Made by a program: the position numbers and the translations under genes
Shown: piece by piece, positions 7,296 through 58,188 of the stretch
Layout of the letters: every line of letters begins with the position of its first letter
Position numbering within the stretch: position 1 is the first letter of the stretch
Notes under the pieces: model-generated
Seen by the model: the letters and a program-made list of their open reading frames with translations, nothing else
Told to the model about the DNA's origin: nothing
Databases searched by the model: none
Origin: a virus
Taxonomy: Duplodnaviria > Caudoviricetes
IMG/VR virus record: IMGVR_UViG_3300021400_000034
Coordinates: 160,001-224,000 of that record
Strand: one strand, 5' to 3'
DNA: 64,000 nucleotides

Positions 7296-7607
7296 TTAGT
7301 TTCCGTGGTCCGCAGAGTCATCAGTGTTTCCGTTGTCACGTTCAGGTTCTGCCGGATCGTAGGTGATCGTGTAGATAGCGATCACAGTGTCGTACCTGCC
7401 GTTGTTGTGTCGGTTGAGTGTGTAAGTCGTGATCTTGATGTCGTGAATGACAGCAGGTTTGTTCTTCTCGATCCACTTGTTCAGCTTCCGGTCGATCTCT
7501 TTCTCCGTCACTGGAATCGCCTTGGGATTGTAGCTACCCGGGTCGTAGTTGTACACGAGGTTTCCGCCGAAGTTGGAAAGTAGGAACTGGAAAGTCTTGA
7601 TTTTCAT
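7296..7607 (-). CDS. Hypothetical early protein
   Basis: AAGGACC leader and own early promoter. Confidence 0.75.
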   Translation of the reverse strand: MKIKTFQFLLSNFGGNLVYNYDPGSYNPKAIPVTEKEIDRKLNKWIEKNKPAVIHDIKITTYTLNRHNNGRYDTVIAIYTITYDPAEPERDNGNTDDSADHGN

Positions 7608-7641
7608 GTTGTTGGTCCTTGTTGATTGTTTTTACGTAGTA

Positions 7642-9276: not shown

Positions 9277-10062
9277 TTATTGCTTCATGAGTTCAAGCGA
9301 AGCTTCCCAGAAAGACTTGTTAGGGACAGCGCCTTTTCCGAGCGCCTGGAACAGAGTCCAGCTGTCGATGACGATCACGTCAGGGAACTTCTTACTGAGA
9401 AATTCCCTGACGATGTTGTCAGTGAAGAGTACGCCAGAAGGGCAGTCTAGAGCTGCTAGAGCTGATTCTGGATCCTTCTTCTTGAGTTCCTTGACGACTT
9501 CACGGCTAGCGCTCTGAAGCTTCAGGAAAGCCTCAAATTCCTTGATTTCTTCGATCGTCTTATGCTTAGCGTTGACAGGGATCTTGATGCAGTAAGTCGG
9601 TTCAGTTAACCATGCATCCACGCCCTTGAAGTCCCAGTCTCCTCCGTTGACCTCTTCGTATCCAGTGAACTGCTGCAGTCTAGGGTCTCGCACATTAGCA
9701 TGTGCAAAGTAGCACTGCATGACTGCTTCGAAAAGATTTCCTACATACTTCAATCGAAGATCGAAGAAGTATTCGTCGATATTGACGATATTGATCTTCT
9801 TGTTGTCCTTGATAGCAGTCTCGATGTCCTTCTCCGACGAGATAGCGAGAAACTTGGTCTTGTACGCTTCATAGAACTTCTTTCCGAATTCGTTGATCGT
9901 ATTTCGGAGATACTCTGGATTGTCGTATTCAATGCAACCATTTTGAGTCATGTGTTCGAAGAAGTCCAAGTATGCACGGTTGTAGTCGAACTGAGAGTCG
10001 TCCATGACAGTATTTGGCTCGAGCACTGCAGTCATCGCTTTGTGGGTGAATAAGTGGTTCAT
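9277..10062 (-). CDS. Putative PD-(D/E)XK restriction-type nuclease
   Basis: GNLFE...DFKGVDAW...PVNAK resembles Mrr-like catalytic spacing; lies between helicase and MTase. Confidence 0.5.
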   Translation of the reverse strand: MNHLFTHKAMTAVLEPNTVMDDSQFDYNRAYLDFFEHMTQNGCIEYDNPEYLRNTINEFGKKFYEAYKTKFLAISSEKDIETAIKDNKKINIVNIDEYFFDLRLKYVGNLFEAVMQCYFAHANVRDPRLQQFTGYEEVNGGDWDFKGVDAWLTEPTYCIKIPVNAKHKTIEEIKEFEAFLKLQSASREVVKELKKKDPESALAALDCPSGVLFTDNIVREFLSKKFPDVIVIDSWTLFQALGKGAVPNKSFWEASLELMKQ

Positions 10063-10092
10063 GATTGGTCCTTTTGTTGAAGTTTCTCTTAT

Positions 10093-10124: not shown

Positions 10125-11762
10125 TTATTTAGAGAAAAGCTCTTCTTTTACCCAAGTTTTCAGAGAATTAAATACTTCCTTTGAGAAGTGATCGAATTCG
10201 TCACGTGCGAAGAGGGTCCATACCTTACCGATCTCTTGGCCAGCTCTCCACATCTTCCAGGCTTCGTCCTTGAAGTCATCGGAAGCGATCTCTCTCGCGT
10301 TGTCGGTATTGTACTCATCTACTGCCCTTACTACTGCGTTCTTGTAACGGAAGGCGATAGGAACGACGGATTTGAGCATGCTGATGTCGACTTCTTCAGT
10401 CTCCGTCTCTTTTCCAGCGCCAGTCTCGATGCCGTCTCCGAAGTCGATCATGTTCTCGAATCCGTTGACCATCTTGTCGAGGAATTCGTGAATCTGCTCG
10501 TCAGAGTCAGCAGTGACATAGATGTTGAACTTCTCTTTCCCAGGAGCAGTTCTGTCTCCACGGCAGATCGCCTGATAGAGATTGTTCTCACGCTTGTCGC
10601 AGAGAATGCATACGCCGTTGATAGACTTGATGTCTATTCCCTCTTGGATCTTGTAAGCAGAGAGAATGATTGTGTGCTTCTTGGAGTCTTTGATCTTCTC
10701 GAGGACTGCTCTGTCGTCGAGCTTCTCTCCGTTGAAGCTAGAGGATATGTCCTTCTTGTTTACTGGTTCGCCATGCAGATTCTTCACTGCCACTTCTTTC
10801 TCGGAAGCCAAGATAGCTACATCCATCTTGTCTACTGGATAGACCTTGCGAATTGTGCTCTCGTAGTTTCCGAGATAGTCGATGCTGTTGTCGAATACGA
10901 CTTCGACAGCTCGACCGCTGTTTCCGAGCCTTCTAGAGCTCTCGGCTTCGTTCACGTGATGCTTGATGCTAGCCATGATAGAAGTAGCTTTGTCTTTCTC
11001 TTTCTTCTTGTTGGTCTTCGAGACCAGATAGAGAGACGGTCTGACGACAACGCCGTCAGCGATAGCCCGACGGAATCCATAAGAGATTCTCTTCGTAGAG
11101 CAGAGCTCTGCTAATCTCTTAGACGGAGTAGCAGTGTAAGCGACGAAAGCGTTGCTCATATTCTTCAATTCACGAAGAACCGAGAGATCTATGTCTTTGT
11201 GGGCTTCATCTACGATGGTGAGATCGAAAGTGACTTCATGTCCGTTCTTCGTGCGATGAGAGGCCAGATTCATTATTCTGGACTCGACTTGACGAGCAGC
11301 GTTTTCGAAGTCCAGGTTGACTGATTTGTCGCAGGCTAAGATGATGTTGTGCTTGTTCGAATTGAGCTTGTTGGAGATTCCGCAGCCTGTAGACATAGCC
11401 ATGTCGAACTTAGCGTCTCCGAGCTCCCTAGAAGACATATCGAGAACGTTGAAGCGCTCTTCGAAGTCTTTGATCTTCGCTCTGCATTCATCGACTAGCT
11501 GCTCGTTGAGAAGAAGACGTGGCGAGGAGAGGAGAATCATCGCCTTCTTTCCCTCGGCTTCTCTCTGACGAGCCACGTAGTCGATAGTCAAGTGCTGAAC
11601 CGTAGTCTTGCCAGAACCGCAGGTAGCATCGACCAAGACAGAGATTCTCGGCTTAGCCATCAGCTGATCCAAGCTCTTCAACGCCTGAAGCTGCCAGTCA
11701 CGAAGCTTAATAGAGTTGTGTATTTCGTAGTCGGCGATGACGGTTTCAAGAATGTTTTTCAT
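10125..11762 (-). CDS. SF2 helicase (type III/ISP restriction Res-like)
   Basis: LRDWQ, ATCGSGKT, IVDEAH, TATP, QEGIDI, QAICRGDR. Confidence 0.88.
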   Translation of the reverse strand: MKNILETVIADYEIHNSIKLRDWQLQALKSLDQLMAKPRISVLVDATCGSGKTTVQHLTIDYVARQREAEGKKAMILLSSPRLLLNEQLVDECRAKIKDFEERFNVLDMSSRELGDAKFDMAMSTGCGISNKLNSNKHNIILACDKSVNLDFENAARQVESRIMNLASHRTKNGHEVTFDLTIVDEAHKDIDLSVLRELKNMSNAFVAYTATPSKRLAELCSTKRISYGFRRAIADGVVVRPSLYLVSKTNKKKEKDKATSIMASIKHHVNEAESSRRLGNSGRAVEVVFDNSIDYLGNYESTIRKVYPVDKMDVAILASEKEVAVKNLHGEPVNKKDISSSFNGEKLDDRAVLEKIKDSKKHTIILSAYKIQEGIDIKSINGVCILCDKRENNLYQAICRGDRTAPGKEKFNIYVTADSDEQIHEFLDKMVNGFENMIDFGDGIETGAGKETETEEVDISMLKSVVPIAFRYKNAVVRAVDEYNTDNAREIASDDFKDEAWKMWRAGQEIGKVWTLFARDEFDHFSKEVFNSLKTWVKEELFSK

Positions 11763-11795
11763 AGTTCCGGTCCTTGTTTTGAGTTTTACAAGTAA

Positions 11796-11827: not shown

Positions 11828-11954
11828 TAAAATTGAGAAAATCCCAATCCGTCGTGCACCATATATGAGCACTATCTCACGAAATCTACAAAGGACATAT
11901 TTTACTATTATTTGACTATCTTCCAAACTATGGAAGAGAAGGAAAGTTACAAAT

Positions 11955-13271: not shown

Positions 13272-13285
13272 TTTCCTTCTCAATC

Positions 13286-15900: not shown

Positions 15901-15968
15901 GAGAAATTTGCGAGTCAAAAAATTTCCTATATATAAACTAGATCCGCTGGAAAATATCCAGTGAGACG

Positions 15969-16001
15969 AAAGGAACAATAAAGGAACAATAAAGGTACAA
16001 T
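15969..16001 (+). repeat. 11-bp tandem repeat x3 in SSB leader
   Basis: AAAGGAACAAT AAAGGAACAAT AAAGGTACAAT. Confidence 0.9.
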
Positions 16002-16932
16002 GATGATTGAAAGAAAATTCGACAATTACTTCGAACAGATCAAAGAGGTGGCTGCCAAGAAGAGTGGAAGCTCGTTTTCTATTGAAAACGAATTCGTCCC
16101 TGTGATGGTCAATGGCGAGTGCGAAGTCGTGATGCGACTCCTCCCTCAGCCGAGCACGGAAGCTGCACCGTTCGTCGAGAACAGAACGCACTCGTTCAAG
16201 GGCTCTGACGGCAAGTGGCACGTGGTTGACTGTCTCCGCAAGTCCGGCAGCAAGTGCCCGATCTGCGAATGGAACTCAGCCGTGTTCAAGGCATTCCCGA
16301 AAGAGAAGGCTAAGGACATCTGCAAGAAGAAAGCTAAGAGGTCGTTCATCTCCAACGTCTACATCGTGAAGAACACTGCTGCACCGAACACGGAAGGCAA
16401 AGTCTACCGCTTCAAGTACGGCATCCAGATCATGGAGAAGATTCTCGCCAAGATGTCTGACAAGGAAGATCCGGACAAGGGTTTCATCAAGGGAGTCAAC
16501 GTCTTCGACTACTACAACGGCGCTAACCTGATCTTCAAGGCTAAGGACGGCAACTTCGGCCCGAACCCTGAGGCATCATACTTCGGCGACGCAAAGCCGA
16601 TCAGCGACAAGAACAACGTTCCGCTGACTGATGAAGAGATCAAGGCAATCGACGACAGCCTCTACACGCTGAAGGACTGCGAGAAGGACACCTCTAACGA
16701 GACCTTCGAAAGCGTTCTCAACTTGTACGAGAAGTTCGTTGAAGGCGAAAAGCTCTTCGTCCGTGGCAAGGACGCTGAAGGCAAGACGACTTACGATCCG
16801 ATCATTCCGGGCGTGGCCGCAGGCAACACTGCTGCTCTGAACGACGCTGTCCGCAGCGAGTTCGACGTGGAAGAGCCGGATGTCCGTCCGACTGCCGAAG
16901 CTAGCGAAGATTTCTTCGACACCTTGAAGTAA
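16000..16932 (+). CDS. gp32: Single-stranded DNA-binding protein
   Basis: MRLLP, HSF, DCL..KCPICE, SNVYIVK..PNTEGKVYRFKYG, GANL, acidic EDFFDTL tail. Confidence 0.92.
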   Translation: MMIERKFDNYFEQIKEVAAKKSGSSFSIENEFVPVMVNGECEVVMRLLPQPSTEAAPFVENRTHSFKGSDGKWHVVDCLRKSGSKCPICEWNSAVFKAFPKEKAKDICKKKAKRSFISNVYIVKNTAAPNTEGKVYRFKYGIQIMEKILAKMSDKEDPDKGFIKGVNVFDYYNGANLIFKAKDGNFGPNPEASYFGDAKPISDKNNVPLTDEEIKAIDDSLYTLKDCEKDTSNETFESVLNLYEKFVEGEKLFVRGKDAEGKTTYDPIIPGVAAGNTAALNDAVRSEFDVEEPDVRPTAEASEDFFDTLK

Positions 16933-16942
16933 AGAGACTGGT

Positions 16943-16994
16943 TGGGCCGACGAAACTGATAATCGTCCTTTTACTCCTATTTTTAGTCGACCCA
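16943..16994 (+). promoter_or_regulatory. 3'-UTR stem-loop with anti-RBS loop
   Basis: Imperfect 13-bp stem, ~25-nt loop containing TCCTTTTACTCCT. Confidence 0.55.
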
Positions 16995-20647: not shown

Positions 20648-22258
20648 ATGAACCTTAACTTTCTAAACTTTCTAAGCAGCAACTTTCTCAAGAACGAAGA
20701 GGACGCACAGACCCTTCGTGAGCTTGAGGCTAGAAACAACTCAATCGGTCTAGACGAAGACCAGACGAACTGGGCATCCATTGGCGGCGGCTGGGGAATG
20801 ACTAACGGCGACGCAGTCAACCCAGACCAGCAGTCGATCCTGTTCGATTCAGTCTTCGAGAACAAGAAGCAGAGAATCGCTTTCTACCGCAGCATGTACA
20901 ACTATCCTCTCGTCAAGAAGGCCGTCACTATGATGGTCGACGAGATGTGCAAGCCTAACGCCGAGAACGAGGTCGCTAGCTTCAACATAAACAAAGCTTT
21001 CTCCGCACAGTTCAACTCGACAGAGTATGCGTCACTCAAGAAGGAGTTCGACTACGTCATGAACTGCGTCATCGGTCAAGACAACGTCCACGACATGCTG
21101 AGACGTTGGCTCGTTGACGGCGAACAGTTCGTCGAGAACTGCGCATCCGACGACGGAAAGAAGCTAGTCGGCATCAAGGTCCTTCCTGCGTACTGCTCTC
21201 TAGTCATCTACGAAGAGGGCAAGGCTACTGGCTACATTCAGGATCCTAGAATGATCGACCTGAACTCGACTGGCGAGATCAAGAAGTTCACGCTCGACCA
21301 GATCTCTTACTCGGACTACGGCCAGTGGGGCGCTAACCGAAACGACGTGAGAGGACATCTTGATCCAGCTATCCGTCCGCTCAACCAGCTGAGAGCCATC
21401 GAGGACGCCCTCACGGTTACGAGAATCAACAGAGCTCCTGAGCGCAGACTCTGGAACGTCTACATCGGCAGAGCTAACGACGCTAAGGCTACTGCGATGG
21501 TCAACGACATCAAGAACAAGTACCGCAAGACCATGACGATCGACCCGATAACGGGAATGATCCAGAGCTCCAAGAACGTTCAGAGCTTCACCGAAGACAT
21601 CTTCGTCGGAAAGACAGACCAAGGCAACGGCACTACGATCGAGCCGATCAAGTCCTCGACCGAGTTCAACGGACAGATGGACGACGTGAAAATGTTCCAG
21701 CAGCAAGTCATGGACGCTCTTCTCACACCTTCGATCCGCTGGGCGGAAGGAGAAGGCGGTGGCGGTCAGTACGCTGTCGCTCCCGAGCAGCAGCTCTCTG
21801 AGATCACTTACCAGGAGATGTGCCGCAGACTCGGACAGAGATACTGCAACCAGATCATCAAGCACACTTTCATAGTCCACCTCAAGATGTGCGGATTCAA
21901 GACTAAGTACTTGGATCCAGCTCTATACAACATCACCCTCAACGGCGCAAACAACTTCGAGAAGATCAGGCAGTTAGCCGTATGGGAGAAGATGGGTGGA
22001 ATCTTGGGTCAGCTCCAGACGATGCTTCCGTCTCTGGCTAACGCTAAGGCTGACTCCGAAGAAGCTAAGCCGCTCATCTCTCGCCAGTATCTCTACGAGA
22101 ACATTCTGCACATGAGCGACGCCGACATACTGAAGAATCAGCAGTGCATCAAGGAAGAGTGCGAAGCTCTCCTAGAAGATGCAAAGGCTGCACAAGAAGA
22201 AGCTGCACCTGAAGACCAGGATGAAGATCTAGAAGGCGGAGATGACATAGGGTTCTAA
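20648..22258 (+). CDS. gp20: Portal protein
   Basis: YRSM, RRWLVDG, AIRPLNQLRAIEDALTVTRINRAPERR, FTEDI, GQMDDV. Confidence 0.95.
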   Translation: MNLNFLNFLSSNFLKNEEDAQTLRELEARNNSIGLDEDQTNWASIGGGWGMTNGDAVNPDQQSILFDSVFENKKQRIAFYRSMYNYPLVKKAVTMMVDEMCKPNAENEVASFNINKAFSAQFNSTEYASLKKEFDYVMNCVIGQDNVHDMLRRWLVDGEQFVENCASDDGKKLVGIKVLPAYCSLVIYEEGKATGYIQDPRMIDLNSTGEIKKFTLDQISYSDYGQWGANRNDVRGHLDPAIRPLNQLRAIEDALTVTRINRAPERRLWNVYIGRANDAKATAMVNDIKNKYRKTMTIDPITGMIQSSKNVQSFTEDIFVGKTDQGNGTTIEPIKSSTEFNGQMDDVKMFQQQVMDALLTPSIRWAEGEGGGGQYAVAPEQQLSEITYQEMCRRLGQRYCNQIIKHTFIVHLKMCGFKTKYLDPALYNITLNGANNFEKIRQLAVWEKMGGILGQLQTMLPSLANAKADSEEAKPLISRQYLYENILHMSDADILKNQQCIKEECEALLEDAKAAQEEAAPEDQDEDLEGGDDIGF

Positions 22259-34986: not shown

Positions 34987-35009
34987 GAATTTTCAAGGAG
35001 TAAAAGGAA

Positions 35010-44423: not shown

Positions 44424-44454
44424 AAGAGAGGAAGATGAAAGTCTTCCTCTCTTT
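44424..44454. terminator. Bidirectional terminator
   Basis: AAGAGAGGAAGA/TCTTCCTCTCTT stem between convergent genes. Confidence 0.8.
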
Positions 44455-44741: not shown

Positions 44742-44794
44742 AAAAAGTCCCGTCTCCTAAAGACAAGGACCAGTTGAATTGAAGGAGACGGGAC
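44742..44794 (-). terminator. Terminator with 24-nt anti-RBS loop
   Basis: Perfect 12-bp stem GTCCCGTCTCCT/AGGAGACGGGAC, T5 tract on minus strand. Confidence 0.8.
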
Positions 44795-44818: not shown

Positions 44819-45943
44819 CTAAGCGACCTTGGCCGCGATGGTGGTCTCGTAGAAGGTCTGGAGCTCTTCGTCGGAGATGTCGTAGACCCAGTCTTCCTGA
44901 GCCATCATGTCCTGGTAGACCAGGTTGTTGATGATGGCGACCTGAGCTTCCTTGCTCATGCCTTCACGGATGAAGGCAGAGAAGTTCTTCTTCCACTTCT
45001 CGGGAACATCCTTCTTGGTGTCCTTCTTGTAAGCAGTGACGAAGATCTTAATGTCGTTCGTGAGCTTGGTAGCCGTGGCGACGTCGAAGAGATCATCATC
45101 GTTCTTCGGCTTGATGGACTTCCAGTCGCGGAGGATGTCCTCAGCGCCAACGGCAGAGGAAGCGTTCTGGTAGAACGGAGCGTATTTGACCGCGATTGTC
45201 GGACCTACGTAGCCAGACATCATGTTGATGACGAAGGCGTTGTCAAGCTTCTTGACGTTCTTGACCTTCTCTGCGTTGTAGAGGTTGTCGGAAGCGTCGA
45301 ACCAAGAGCGGCGAGAAGGAAGGACGACGAGCTCGGAGCCGTCACCAGCGCCGACATCCATAGCCTTCGCGTTAGAGAACGGATCGAGGTCGGACTTGTT
45401 CTTGGAGAGGTAGTCGATGATAGAGGGGTGTATCTTCGCAGCCTTAGCGTGAGCCATCCATTCGTTGAAGGTCGGATCCAGCCAGTAAGCAGCGTAGCGG
45501 CTCAGCTGTGCGGGGTCAGGAATTTCGCCTTCGTAGCCGTGGAATCCCGGAGGGTTAGCGGCAGCGAATACGCGAGAGCCCGGAGCGAGCTTCTTGTCAG
45601 CGATGGTCTGGTCGAGGCAGAGGCTCATAAGAGCGTTGCGGACGTCCGGGTTAGCACGGAAGACTTCGTCGAAGAAGAGCAGCACCGGTTCGTCCGGAGA
45701 GTACCAGTAAGTGGGGTTGAAGACCGTCTTGCCGTCCTTGATAGACGGAAGACCGAGGATGTCGCCCACGTCGTTGAGGTGGGTGCAGTCGAAGCAGATG
45801 ACCTTGAGGCCGAGCTGTTTGCCGATCTGGCGGATGACTTGGGTTTTACCGATACCAAACTCGCCAATGGCGAGCATTGCCTTGTGCGACGGGCAGCAGA
45901 GGGCGAGGTCGGTGAATTCGGCGATGGAGACTTTTGCGAGCAT
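44819..45943 (-). CDS. MoxR/dynein-related AAA+ ATPase
   Basis: GEFGIGKT, DILGLP, LFFDEVFRA, AAANP, DPAQLSRY, PSRRSW. Confidence 0.9.
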   Translation of the reverse strand: MLAKVSIAEFTDLALCCPSHKAMLAIGEFGIGKTQVIRQIGKQLGLKVICFDCTHLNDVGDILGLPSIKDGKTVFNPTYWYSPDEPVLLFFDEVFRANPDVRNALMSLCLDQTIADKKLAPGSRVFAAANPPGFHGYEGEIPDPAQLSRYAAYWLDPTFNEWMAHAKAAKIHPSIIDYLSKNKSDLDPFSNAKAMDVGAGDGSELVVLPSRRSWFDASDNLYNAEKVKNVKKLDNAFVINMMSGYVGPTIAVKYAPFYQNASSAVGAEDILRDWKSIKPKNDDDLFDVATATKLTNDIKIFVTAYKKDTKKDVPEKWKKNFSAFIREGMSKEAQVAIINNLVYQDMMAQEDWVYDISDEELQTFYETTIAAKVA

Positions 45944-45987
45944 ATTTCTGGTCCTTGTTGAAGTGGCTCTTTTTATCTTACATATAC

Positions 45988-46273: not shown

Positions 46274-47839
46274 TTAGTCGTCCCAGACATGAGTGAGTTC
46301 CTGAATCGAAGCGTGATGCCTGACGAACTGCGGCACCGAGTATTCCTTCTCCGAAGAGATGATGAATATCGGAGTGGGCGTGAGGTTGTTCTCCTTCCAG
46401 TCCCAGTAGCAGTCCGTGAAGATCACGACGCCGTCGTAGTGCTTGTTGTGCTGTTTGAGCCATTCACCGATGCAGGCAGGATCGGTACCTCCGCGACCCG
46501 GAGCTTCGATCTTCTGGATGTTCTTGGTGAGCTTCTTCGGCTCGACCATCTGAGCGTCCCAGAATGCCAGATCGATCTCGGTCTTCTTGTAGAAGTTGTG
46601 GAGGATAGCGCAGCCCTTCTCGATGTCGGACTGGCTCATGGATCCACTAGAGTCGATCGCGAAGAGCATGCGAGTCTTGCGGTCGGTTCGATAGCCAGGC
46701 AGGTATTCGTAGCGCTTGTTTACGCGGAGACGAGTGGAGATGCGCTTGCGAGAGCGGACCGTAGCGCCGAAGCCAGCGATGATCGGGACGATGTTGACCT
46801 TGCGCTTGTTCTGGAGCAAGATCTCTTCGACCTGATTGCCGCTGAGCTTGCCCCAGCCAGTGATCTTGCACTTGTTCTCCACGACGTCGCGGATCATCTC
46901 GTCTACGATATTGTTTTGGCCCCACTCTTCTGTGTTTTCTTCGCCTGACTGGTTCCAGTCGTCGAACTTCTCTTTTCCAGATCCGCTATTCGAGTCTTCA
47001 GAGTCAGATTCTCCACTGCCAGTTCCAGGCCGATGTTGAGCATCTCCATCACCACTGCCTTCGCCTTCGGAGTCAGACTGTTGATCTCCTCTGAGACCTT
47101 CAGAAGATCCTTCTGAGTCAGCGTCGTCCCCGCTGCCGTCTTGATCTTGGTCTTCTTGGCTTTCACCTTCTCCTTGACCTTGATCTTCTTGATCCTCGTC
47201 GCCTTCGCCGGAGTCTCCGCTTTCGCGATTATCGTTTTCGTCTTTGCCATTGTCGGCTCCTTTGTCCTTCTTGGACTTTGTTTGTTGAGACTGTTGACCT
47301 TCGCCGTCTTGGCTCTGGCCGTTCTGTTGAGATTGTTGCTGCTGTTCCTGATTCTGGTTCAGCATGTCGTAGACAGCTTCGTAGTAGAAGTCGTCCTTGT
47401 CGATTTTCTTGCCGATCTCGTCCTCGATGGTGATCTTGGACCAGACGGCCTTGCGTACGTATTCAGCGACGTCGCTCGGAGCGCTGCTGAGGAAGAACTG
47501 GAGTTCCTTAGAGTTGCAGACAGCGGTAGAGGCCTTGTAAGCGTTCGGGCCCTGAAGTTCGCGGTGCGTGCAGTGATGAAGAATGAAGCGGTAGAGCTCG
47601 ATGGCCATGATGAAGACGAAGACGGACTTGTCGATAGAGCAGACCCATTCCTCGTTGTATTCGAGGTAAGGAGTTACGTCGGTCTTGACGCAGATTCTCA
47701 TGGACTGGATGTTGTTGTTGACGCGCTTCGTGAAGAGAGCATAGAACGAGAGCAGGTTCGGGATGTAGAGCCCGAAGTAGTCCACCGCGTTGGTGAACTT
47801 GTTCTCGATAGCTTCTTTTGTGACTTCTATGGAGTTCAT
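46274..47839 (-). CDS. vWA-domain protein (DUF2201-type: peptidase-like N-terminus, acidic linker, vWA)
   Basis: AIDSSGSM MIDAS, GRGGTD, VIFTD; partner of MoxR ATPase. Confidence 0.88.
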   Translation of the reverse strand: MNSIEVTKEAIENKFTNAVDYFGLYIPNLLSFYALFTKRVNNNIQSMRICVKTDVTPYLEYNEEWVCSIDKSVFVFIMAIELYRFILHHCTHRELQGPNAYKASTAVCNSKELQFFLSSAPSDVAEYVRKAVWSKITIEDEIGKKIDKDDFYYEAVYDMLNQNQEQQQQSQQNGQSQDGEGQQSQQTKSKKDKGADNGKDENDNRESGDSGEGDEDQEDQGQGEGESQEDQDQDGSGDDADSEGSSEGLRGDQQSDSEGEGSGDGDAQHRPGTGSGESDSEDSNSGSGKEKFDDWNQSGEENTEEWGQNNIVDEMIRDVVENKCKITGWGKLSGNQVEEILLQNKRKVNIVPIIAGFGATVRSRKRISTRLRVNKRYEYLPGYRTDRKTRMLFAIDSSGSMSQSDIEKGCAILHNFYKKTEIDLAFWDAQMVEPKKLTKNIQKIEAPGRGGTDPACIGEWLKQHNKHYDGVVIFTDCYWDWKENNLTPTPIFIISSEKEYSVPQFVRHHASIQELTHVWDD

Positions 47840-47868
47840 CGGCTGGTCCTTGATGAGTTAACATATAC

Positions 47869-47901
47869 AATATAAGAACTTCTCGGAGAAATCTAAACCC
47901 C
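47869..47901 (-). promoter_or_regulatory. Early promoter
   Basis: GGGGTTTAGA-N17-TATATT. Confidence 0.75.
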
Positions 47902-47930: not shown

Positions 47931-47959
47931 TTTAGATTTTCACAAAATTTACCTATATT
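47931..47959 (+). promoter_or_regulatory. Early promoter (divergent)
   Basis: TTTAGA-N17-TATATT. Confidence 0.7.
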
Positions 47960-47991
47960 GTATATGTAGAACCAGCTAACAAGGACCAGAT

Positions 47992-48591
47992 ATGTTAGAC
48001 AACCGCAAGATCTATCCCCGCTCGAAAGTCGCCCTTCTCAAGGTCGCCAACCCAGATCTAGCTCCGCTGTGGGGTCTCATTCAGGGCAAGATCACCTCCT
48101 CACACTACGCTTCGATCGTCTTCCAGGAACAGAAGGCCCTGGACCGTCGCGGCATCGGCGGCTTCTTCACCGAGCACAAGTTCGTGAACATCCTCTATCT
48201 CTCGGACAAGTACTTGGACGCTGGCACGAACACTCTCAAGTTCGACACCGACGAGGATCTCGCTATATTCATTCACGAGTGCTCCCACTTCCTGCACCTG
48301 TCCTCGAACGGCGGCAAGTTCCTCATGAGGGACGTCGGAGATCTGCCTCCGCTCAGCGCTGCGAGTCGTCCTACCCCGAAGCAGCGCTACTGGGCTGAGC
48401 GCGAAGCTTGGTTCCGCTCCTTGGGTCTCAACCGCTGCTTCCATCTCGGTCTCGAAGACGCTATAAATACCGCTAACGCGAAGAACATGCTCGCCGTCGA
48501 GGTCAGCATGGGACTCCGCAAGGGAAAGCTCGAAGATCTCAAGAAGGAAGCTCGGTCGATGAAGATCACCGACTTCGTCCTCAAAGACTAG
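47992..48591 (+). CDS. Zincin-like metallopeptidase
   Basis: FIHECSH and downstream AEREAW. Confidence 0.7.
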   Translation: MLDNRKIYPRSKVALLKVANPDLAPLWGLIQGKITSSHYASIVFQEQKALDRRGIGGFFTEHKFVNILYLSDKYLDAGTNTLKFDTDEDLAIFIHECSHFLHLSSNGGKFLMRDVGDLPPLSAASRPTPKQRYWAEREAWFRSLGLNRCFHLGLEDAINTANAKNMLAVEVSMGLRKGKLEDLKKEARSMKITDFVLKD

Positions 48592-57363: not shown

Positions 57364-58188
57364 ATGTACTCAGACTTTCAGGAAGAGTTCAATCGCTTGT
57401 GGGGTGATGGCGGATGCACCGTCAGCGGATGGGACTGGAACAAGCCTATGCCCTACGACAGCACAGACAAAGACAGCTGCTACGCTAACGAAGCAGCATT
57501 TCTCTCCTCGCTGACATCTGAAGCGTACAACATGTACGGCTTCGAGGTCGACTACTACATCAAGCAGATCTCGACGAAGAGAGATCGTCTGCTCGGCGAG
57601 GATCCGCTCGAGAACATCGTCCGCAGGTTCAAGCTGTCCGTCTACACTGACAGCATTCCCAACCTGCAGAAGCAGTATCAGATCCAAGGCATGCTATATG
57701 ACGAGGTTTTCGAGATACAGGCGACCATAGCCCACTTCAGAGAAGCTAGCCAGTATGACTACGAGAGAACCGAGATCAAGTACGAGGAGTACAAGCCGAA
57801 GATAGGCGACATCATCTACTTCCAGTATAACGACAAGTACTACGAAGTGATAAACGTGAAGGAGTTCAAGGACGGCACTGCTTTCCTTGGCACTCCGATC
57901 ACTTATACGTTCACTCTGAGAATCTGGAAGAACAACCACGAAGACGTGGACGTCATGAACCAGAATGACGACGACATGCCTATCGAGGACTTCACTGCCC
58001 TGGCTGAGTCGTTCGACATCGAGAACAAGACCTCCGAAGTGGCTTCTTCTGGAGACATTTTGGCGGTAAACGACTACGTAAAAGGCGAAGATCCGGGACT
58101 TCAGCGCTATGTTCCCAAAGACGAGCCTCCTGAGATCTGCAAACAGAAGAGAAAATCAGACCCGTTCGACCCGTTTGACGGCTGGTAG
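57364..58188 (+). CDS. gp14: Neck protein
   Basis: EAYNMYGFEVDYY, DRLLGEDPL, PKIGDIIYF, YEVINV, DPF ending. Confidence 0.85.
   Translation: MYSDFQEEFNRLWGDGGCTVSGWDWNKPMPYDSTDKDSCYANEAAFLSSLTSEAYNMYGFEVDYYIKQISTKRDRLLGEDPLENIVRRFKLSVYTDSIPNLQKQYQIQGMLYDEVFEIQATIAHFREASQYDYERTEIKYEEYKPKIGDIIYFQYNDKYYEVINVKEFKDGTAFLGTPITYTFTLRIWKNNHEDVDVMNQNDDDMPIEDFTALAESFDIENKTSEVASSGDILAVNDYVKGEDPGLQRYVPKDEPPEICKQKRKSDPFDPFDGW

Follow-up and report, generated by a model that had tools for sequence, protein, structure and literature searches.

Why does the terminator behind an early ATPase gene of an uncultured T4-like phage display, in a large loop, the complement of the ribosome-binding site (RBS) of that same gene? 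The locus lies in a genome recovered as a single contig of 243,336 bp with 48.6% G+C, and bases 160001-224000 of this contig, the 64,000-nt stretch that was analysed, are referred to here as the window. The contig carries T4-like genes, including uvsX, SSB, a gp23-type capsid gene, and an anaerobic NrdD. A blastn search of a phage GenBank collection returned no similar record; relatives were found only among metagenome and IMG/VR contigs, which may come from rumen or gut samples. The reading that we favor, with modest confidence, is that this terminator, termed T1, is an intrinsic terminator with a conserved anti-leader loop that would pair with early leaders and occlude their RBSs. The elements of T1 and the gene that it follows are given below.

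44819-45943, minus strand: AAA_5/MoxR-like ATPase gene, 374 aa (PF07728, E 7e-7; bpMoxR below the cut-off)
44742-44794, minus strand: T1, intrinsic terminator of the AAA_5/MoxR gene, recognized from its fold and from relatives
44794-44783, minus strand: T1 5' arm GTCCCGTCTCCT, perfectly paired in a 12-bp stem
44782-44759, minus strand: T1 loop UCAAUUCAACUGGUCCUUGUCUUU, 24 nt
44758-44747, minus strand: T1 3' arm AGGAGACGGGAC
44746-44742, minus strand: U5 tail
44763-44773, minus strand: anti-leader core CUGGUCCUUGU within the loop; its sub-core UGGUCCUU is invariant in all relatives

The perfect 12-bp stem and 24-nt loop described in the original prediction agreed with both the coordinates and the computed fold, which had a minimum free energy of -24.8 kcal/mol (z -5.5 against 200 shuffles) and left the loop essentially unpaired. 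With 8 G-C pairs in its stem, a U5 tail, and a position at the end of a gene, T1 has the features of an intrinsic terminator. The hairpin begins 24 nt past the ATPase stop codon, which places the loop 36-59 nt and the anti-leader core 45-55 nt past the stop in a 3'UTR of ~75 nt; the anti-RBS motif is the terminator loop itself. Downstream follows a small gene that uses a GAGAGG RBS of its own. Between the stop codon of the ATPase gene and T1, the spacer is constant only in a CYUUC directly 5' of the stem, and in two lineages it contains a ~14-nt tandem duplication (TAGCGCAAGCTTC...; L140, 3620-3662, and L145, 3610-3654). A further 12-bp hairpin (AAGAGAGGAAGA / TCTTCCTCTCTT) at 44424-44453, between the convergent nrdD and the small minus-strand gene, is probably a bidirectional terminator, and in lineages that do not have the small gene its counterpart lies ~20 nt downstream of T1.

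The significance of the loop depends on what it complements. The word AAGGACC or AGGACC precedes 24 of the 311 called genes, mostly behind promoters of the form TTTAGA-N17-TATATT, and canonical GGAG/GAGG words precede another 162. There are ~22 promoters of this sigma-70-type class genome-wide (GGGTTTAGA(TTTCTC)-N-CTTATATT), and downstream of them the early leaders read ...TGTAA...CAACAA(A)GGACCA followed by the start codon. The spacing between the leader word and the start codon is fixed at 2-6 nt; where the leader is longer, as in two genes, the word remains near the ATG and not near the promoter, and it also serves an operon-internal gene that has no promoter of its own (genome position 21080). 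Because its distance is fixed to the start codon and not to the promoter, the word acts at the translation level, and judged from this placement AAGGACC is a translation-initiation signal, i.e., a private ribosome-binding word. The tail of a standard 16S rRNA (the anti-Shine-Dalgarno [anti-SD] sequence) can pair with the AAGGA part only. The conserved CC(A) that follows is thus unexplained by ribosome binding, and the loop pairing, if it works, would offer an explanation.

Over the whole genome, TAAATA and ATAAAT rank with the most frequent hexamers immediately ahead of start codons (~20 genes), which fits T4-type late promoters (TATAAATA) located near the genes. Outside the window, at genome positions 142845-142873, 145360-145389, 57515-57541, and 147845-147877, perfect 7-11-bp hairpins followed by a T-rich stretch hold the -35 TTTAGA of the next early promoter in their loops, and these look like compact terminator-promoter cassettes.

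The leaders in the window that are complementary to the T1 loop, with their genes and promoters, are as follows.

45948-45958, minus strand: ATPase leader/RBS word ACAAGGACCAG, 11 of 11 nt complementary to the T1 loop
45988-46016, minus strand: early-type promoter of the ATPase gene, TTTAGA-N17-TATATT
46274-47839, minus strand: vWA-like (DUF2201) gene, first of the upstream operon
47843-47853, minus strand: vWA leader UCAAGGACCAG, 10 nt complementary, one mismatch to the 11-mer
47869-47897, minus strand: early-type promoter of the vWA gene
47931-47959, plus strand: early-type promoter of the divergent gene
47979-47989, plus strand: leader ACAAGGACCAG of the divergent gene (47992-48591), 11 of 11 nt complementary
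7612-7622, minus strand: early leader ACAAGGACCAA of the gene at 7296-7607, 10 nt complementary, one mismatch
10065-10075, minus strand: early leader AAAAGGACCAA of the gene at 9277-10062, 8 nt complementary, two mismatches
11767-11777, minus strand: early leader ACAAGGACCGG of the helicase-like gene at 10125-11762, 9 nt complementary, one mismatch

The exact 11-nt complementarity that had been claimed between the loop and the leaders of its own gene and of the gene at 47992 was verified by a word search, in which the 11-mer ACAAGGACCAG occurred exactly three times in the window, namely in these two leaders (minus and plus strand, respectively) and, as its complement, in the T1 loop. The shorter matches of 8-10 nt claimed for the genes starting at 47839, 7607, 11762, and 10062 hold as well, at 10, 10, 9, and 8 nt. 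Genome-wide, the loop matches at least 8 nt in 17 of the 21 promoter-linked AAGGACC leaders. Folding predictions give the leaders no structure (0 to -1.8 kcal/mol), so they should be open for pairing; predicted duplexes between loop and leader range from -17 to -25 kcal/mol, while the 8-nt core match to the wider leader class reaches only about -13 kcal/mol.

If the loop is selected for pairing, loop and leaders would be expected to change together in related phages; covariation in relatives was one of the checks suggested in the original prediction. We compared eight versions of T1 behind the orthologous ATPase gene, with relatives at 93, 88, 81, 80, 69, 67, and 57% protein identity. A collection-wide DNA pattern for T1-like hairpins was too loose: of the 120 stretches that it returned, just 6 proved to be true T1 copies, all from known lineages. 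Since MAFFT misaligned the loops of the distant lineages, stem pairs were tabulated directly from coordinates. All 12 stem pairs are kept in the eight versions, with double compensatory changes at 6 of the 12 and none broken (stem variants GGTCCCGCCTCC, GGTCCCTCTCCC, GGACCCTCACCC, and GGTCCCACCCTC), and the U-rich tail is present in seven of the eight lineages. The loop measures 23-28 nt, and its flanks differ around the invariant core.

It is in these flanks that the lineage-specific pairing is seen. The loop of the 57% lineage complements the vWA leader over 16 consecutive nt (AACAAAAGGACCAAUU) and the divergent leader over 13 nt. That of the 69% lineage complements its own leader in two places, over 12 nt at the 5' end (UGUAAAACAAAA) and over 9 nt at the RBS, and the divergent leader over 11 nt; in the 67% lineage, the loop matches its own leader over 11 + 9 nt. 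Closer to the window, the loop of the 81% relative (G001) matches the divergent leader over 12 nt plus 5 more across the start codon, and that of the 93% lineage matches the vWA leader over 10 nt plus 6 nt over the start codon. In contrast, non-cognate combinations reach only 7-9 nt (window-group loops against leaders of the 57% lineage) or 7-11 nt (the reverse). The base after CCA in the ATPase leader illustrates the change best: leader and loop bases there are G and C in the window, A and U in both the 57% and the 69% lineage, and U and A in the 67% lineage, giving three types of base pair at one position. Not every lineage fits: at 80-81% identity, the loop C faces an A or U of the own leader, a mismatch at the 11th position, and in lineage L146 the loop reaches only 10 nt with all three module leaders. 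The expected covariation was thus found, with few independent events, because most changes trace to one deep split plus a few single-base events. On this comparison the loop-leader complementarity is not to be read as coincidence, and the pattern supports a selected RNA-RNA pairing of the icaR or anti-SD-loop kind.

The favored reading of T1 as an anti-leader element draws on four properties together: complementarity at the RNA level, unstructured leaders, stable predicted duplexes, and a large loop. A loop of 23-28 nt is large enough for a helix of ~10-16 bp. The T1 loop would pair with the short unstructured leaders of the MoxR-ATPase/vWA/divergent module, covering AAGGACC and its flanks, and the invariant 8-nt core could also pair with ~20 other early leaders bearing AAGGACC. 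The most likely consequence of such pairing would be RBS occlusion, first in the finished mRNA that carries both partners (in cis, as in icaR), with possible action in trans from a nuclease-resistant terminator hairpin; in either case, the outcome would be negative feedback on early-gene translation. Pairing in vivo, repression, and its site of action are what we infer from the sequences.

The antisense of AAGGACC, relative to transcription, occurs in intergenic DNA at only two places in the whole genome, T1 and a second terminator, T2, and both times in a terminator loop.

Genome positions 21750-21782: T2 terminator, with an 11-bp stem, an 11-nt loop UCCUGGUCCUU, and a U5 tail

In the operon that T2 closes, the first leader also reads ACAAGGACCAG. 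The antisense 9-mer CTGGTCCTT is present in two copies in 10.35 kb of 3'UTR versus 0.029 expected, and none of 2,000 dinucleotide shuffles reached two copies. Two relatives also have T2, with a single compensatory change in the stem and a different gene in front of it, and each of the two complete genomes examined has exactly two anti-leader terminators, T1 and T2. An 11-nt loop is sterically unable to pair over its full length. Upstream of T2 in the genome under study (21700-21790) are a TGnTATATT -10-like box and a 10-bp hairpin with an anti-SD-like CCACCU loop, and box, hairpin, and T2 could together be a free-standing two-hairpin small RNA of ~70 nt. The box and hairpin are not conserved in the relatives G001 and G002, which have a CCTAGG-stemmed hairpin instead, and no convincing RBS target was found for the hairpins preceding T2 (loops GUCCACCUAU here and UUCUUUUGGUCAUUU in G001).

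The existence of T2 raises the alternative that the loops regulate the whole early class in trans, i.e., that the T1 and T2 hairpins outlive early mRNAs, or that T2 is produced as a small RNA of its own, and that they accumulate and titrate all AAGGACC leaders until early translation is shut off. This would be an RNA counterpart of the T4 proteins RegA, a translational repressor, and RegB, an endoribonuclease that cuts GGAG in early SD sequences. The occurrence of the core in two separate terminators fits this alternative, as do its matches of at least 8 nt in most promoter-linked leaders and the candidate promoter and CCACCU hairpin before T2; in G001, moreover, two unlinked leaders have 11-nt matches to the T2 loop, and the best partner of the T1 loop is not its own gene. 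Nevertheless, all extended matches (12-16 nt) are to the MoxR/vWA module beside T1, and the candidate T2 promoter is confined to one of the genomes compared. We regard a dedicated trans regulator as rather doubtful.

Could such elements form a general system? T1 had been grouped in the original prediction with elements behind uvsX and SSB as three 3'UTR anti-RBS elements of an undescribed control layer. The companion elements are these.

13272-13281, plus strand: uvsX 3'UTR word TTTCCTTCTC / UUUCCUUCUC, 10-nt complement of the uvsX RBS GAGAAGGAAA at 11936-11945
16943-16994, plus strand: SSB 3'UTR hairpin, with the loop core TCCTTTTACTCCT at 16966-16978, 13 of 13 nt complementary to the capsid RBS
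34996-35008, plus strand: major capsid RBS AGGAGTAAAAGGA / AGGAGUAAAAGGA, complement of the SSB loop

The positions of all three elements were correct, but the SSB loop complements the RBS of the major capsid gene and not its own, and the uvsX word is conserved without covariation. The latter lies right after the stop codon in five of six readable related loci (9-10 nt), where the spacers have otherwise diverged, and is disrupted by a C-to-A change in lineage L176. The SSB/capsid pair reads UCC.../...GGA in the window lineage and CUC.../...GAG in three others, again over 13-14 nt, while the stems of the SSB hairpin are completely different across those lineages; in one lineage the pair has decayed to 9/13. 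The 13-nt match is not significant by a generic 3'UTR/RBS test alone, and it is the covariation that supports a pairing between the SSB loop and the capsid RBS. In lineage L169 the SSB loop is UCCUUAAACUCCU, for which the pairing model predicts a capsid leader of AGGAGUUUAAGGA.

Two further observations concern these genes. In the SSB leader (15965-16002), AAAGGAACAAT / AAAGGTACAAT is repeated in tandem about three times immediately ahead of the start codon, with the same repeats in relatives, an arrangement that recalls the repeated operator of T4 gene 32 autoregulation. Lineages L170, L172, and L174 have a uvsX terminator loop (UGUAAAUA) with a 9-10-nt complement to ATATTTACAT, which lies at the uvsX promoter/-10 region, a match that is absent in the window's genome and is possibly due to chance.

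When complements between 3'UTRs and leaders were counted against shuffled controls, as had been suggested along with the control layer, the AAGGACC antisense 9-mer was enriched, whereas complementarity between any 3'UTR and any RBS was enriched just 1.16-fold at k = 8 and not at all at k ≥ 12. Of the 42 3'UTR hairpins with large loops, T1 (11 nt) and the SSB hairpin (13 nt) are the only ones to lie beyond the shuffled distribution. The broad genome-wide layer is rejected because the generic enrichment is weak and disappears at k ≥ 12, and the findings support a small set of loop-displayed anti-RBS elements in its place.

A different use of the same pairing would be protective. By closing the ends of the mRNA, a 5'-3' duplex might shield the leader from 5'-end-dependent RNases and so tune stability and not ribosome access, and a comparable 5'UTR-3'UTR interaction has been described for the hbs mRNA of Bacillus subtilis. 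The loops of the 57-69% lineages, which complement the extreme 5' end of the leader in addition to the RBS, lend this explanation some weight. However, what stays invariant in the loop is its anti-RBS core and not the part facing the 5' end, and the loop of the window lineage does not reach the leader 5' end. We therefore consider protection unlikely as the main role.

An invariant 8-nt word in the loop of a conserved hairpin also resembles a protein-binding hairpin, so T1 might be a protein-binding site, either in RNA (like boxB or an operator hairpin) or in DNA, or a recombination or inversion site, with the leader complementarity being incidental. Several lines of evidence speak against this: (i) the complementarity exceeds the core and tracks lineage-specific leader flanks; (ii) the motif tracks the start codon and not the promoter; and (iii) in DNA, the loop word is repeated directly in the divergent leader and in inverted orientation in the vWA and ATPase leaders, whereas at the RNA level the complementarity is uniform for leaders on either strand. 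Such mixed orientation in DNA with uniform complementarity in RNA indicates an RNA-level relation and argues against a DNA site or inversion system. An invertible segment or terminal inverted repeats were considered and rejected for the same mixed orientation and because all relatives share one gene order and orientation. A gene start on the opposite strand within the loop (TTG-AAT-TGA after the motif) was likewise rejected, since it is not conserved in the 67% lineage. Altogether, an incidental protein or DNA site is very unlikely. A chance match of a pyrimidine-rich loop to purine-rich RBSs, for which it can be said that 10-13-nt 3'UTR/RBS matches are common here (90 ten-mers versus 65 in shuffles, with 13-mers not enriched), is hardly credible given two copies of the 9-mer, both in terminator loops, and conservation with covariation across lineages.

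Returning to RBS occlusion by the T1 loop, the closest known parallel is the icaR mRNA of Staphylococcus aureus, in which a 3'UTR UCCCCUG pairs with the mRNA's own SD sequence, blocks initiation, and creates an RNase III substrate (PMC3868564). As in icaR, one mRNA carries both the anti-RBS word of T1, in its 3'UTR, and a leader that this word complements at 11 of 11 nt, and by analogy a block of initiation, possibly with an RNase III duplex, would be expected. The differences are that icaR has a long 3'UTR (>100 nt) with its motif outside the terminator, whereas the T1 motif is the loop of the terminator in a far shorter 3'UTR, and that T1 would target a private, non-canonical word shared by ~24 genes of a lytic T4-like phage, including neighboring leaders on both strands.

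RNAIII has terminator-proximal hairpins that are likewise of the anti-SD-loop kind. Small RNAs of Firmicutes with C-rich loops (the UCCC motif of RsaE and its relatives) also bind SD sequences (reviewed in PMC9266662). In these, as proposed for T1, an anti-SD word in a hairpin loop pairs with the RBSs of several mRNAs, and T2 with its 11-nt loop is the most similar. However, RsaE-type RNAs are independent genes with UCCC seeds for canonical SD sequences, whereas T1 is an mRNA terminator whose seed, UGGUCCUU, is specific to the phage leader and is not the C-rich UCCC/CCCC of RsaE/RoxS-like loops. A promoter scan found no promoter before T1; before T2 there is the TGnTATATT box, in this genome only.

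Among phage systems, the c4 antisense RNA of P1/P7 also has loops that pair with RBS-overlapping sites on a transcript of the same region. It differs in that it belongs to temperate phages, arises by processing of the 5' part of its target transcript, and controls an antirepressor and not an early-gene class; a cmscan search of the T1 and T2 terminator regions gave no Rfam match (E ≤ 1), C4 included. By analogy, RegA and RegB would share the goal of selectively shutting down the translation of early messages in a T4-like phage, but they are proteins, while the candidate effector here is an RNA loop whose selectivity would come from a private RBS word.

In enterobacterial 3'UTR-derived sRNAs, as in the candidate regulator T1, the regulator shares the terminator of its parental mRNA (reviewed in PMC7821165). 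In T1, the candidate seed is the terminator loop itself. The enterobacterial RNAs, in contrast, mostly have their seeds in single-stranded segments upstream of the terminator. A published catalogue of phage non-coding RNAs, UTR-derived ones among them, presents these only as candidate regulators to which no functions are assigned (PMC10914365). A literature search found no description of the arrangement seen here, which is not proof of absence; what appears to be new is that, in a lytic T4-like phage, a terminator-loop location, a private non-canonical RBS word, multiple targets on both strands, and co-evolution occur in combination.

More tentatively, T4-like giant phages might possess a private translation code, consisting of an early leader word and its antisense in the loops of early-transcript terminators. 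As early mRNAs finish or decay, accumulating nuclease-resistant hairpins would switch off the early class, as an RNA-only equivalent of RegA/RegB, and the SSB loop with the capsid RBS would be a second use of the same principle. This broad version is possible at best.

If the pairing works as proposed, this phage group would time or limit early protein synthesis by an RNA device built into a terminator, and because the RBS word is the phage's own, host messages would remain untouched. Control of a 5'UTR by a 3'UTR, known from a few bacterial mRNAs, would then extend to lytic phages and to terminator loops, and the leader word with its loop may represent a compact, portable, and orthogonal repression module.
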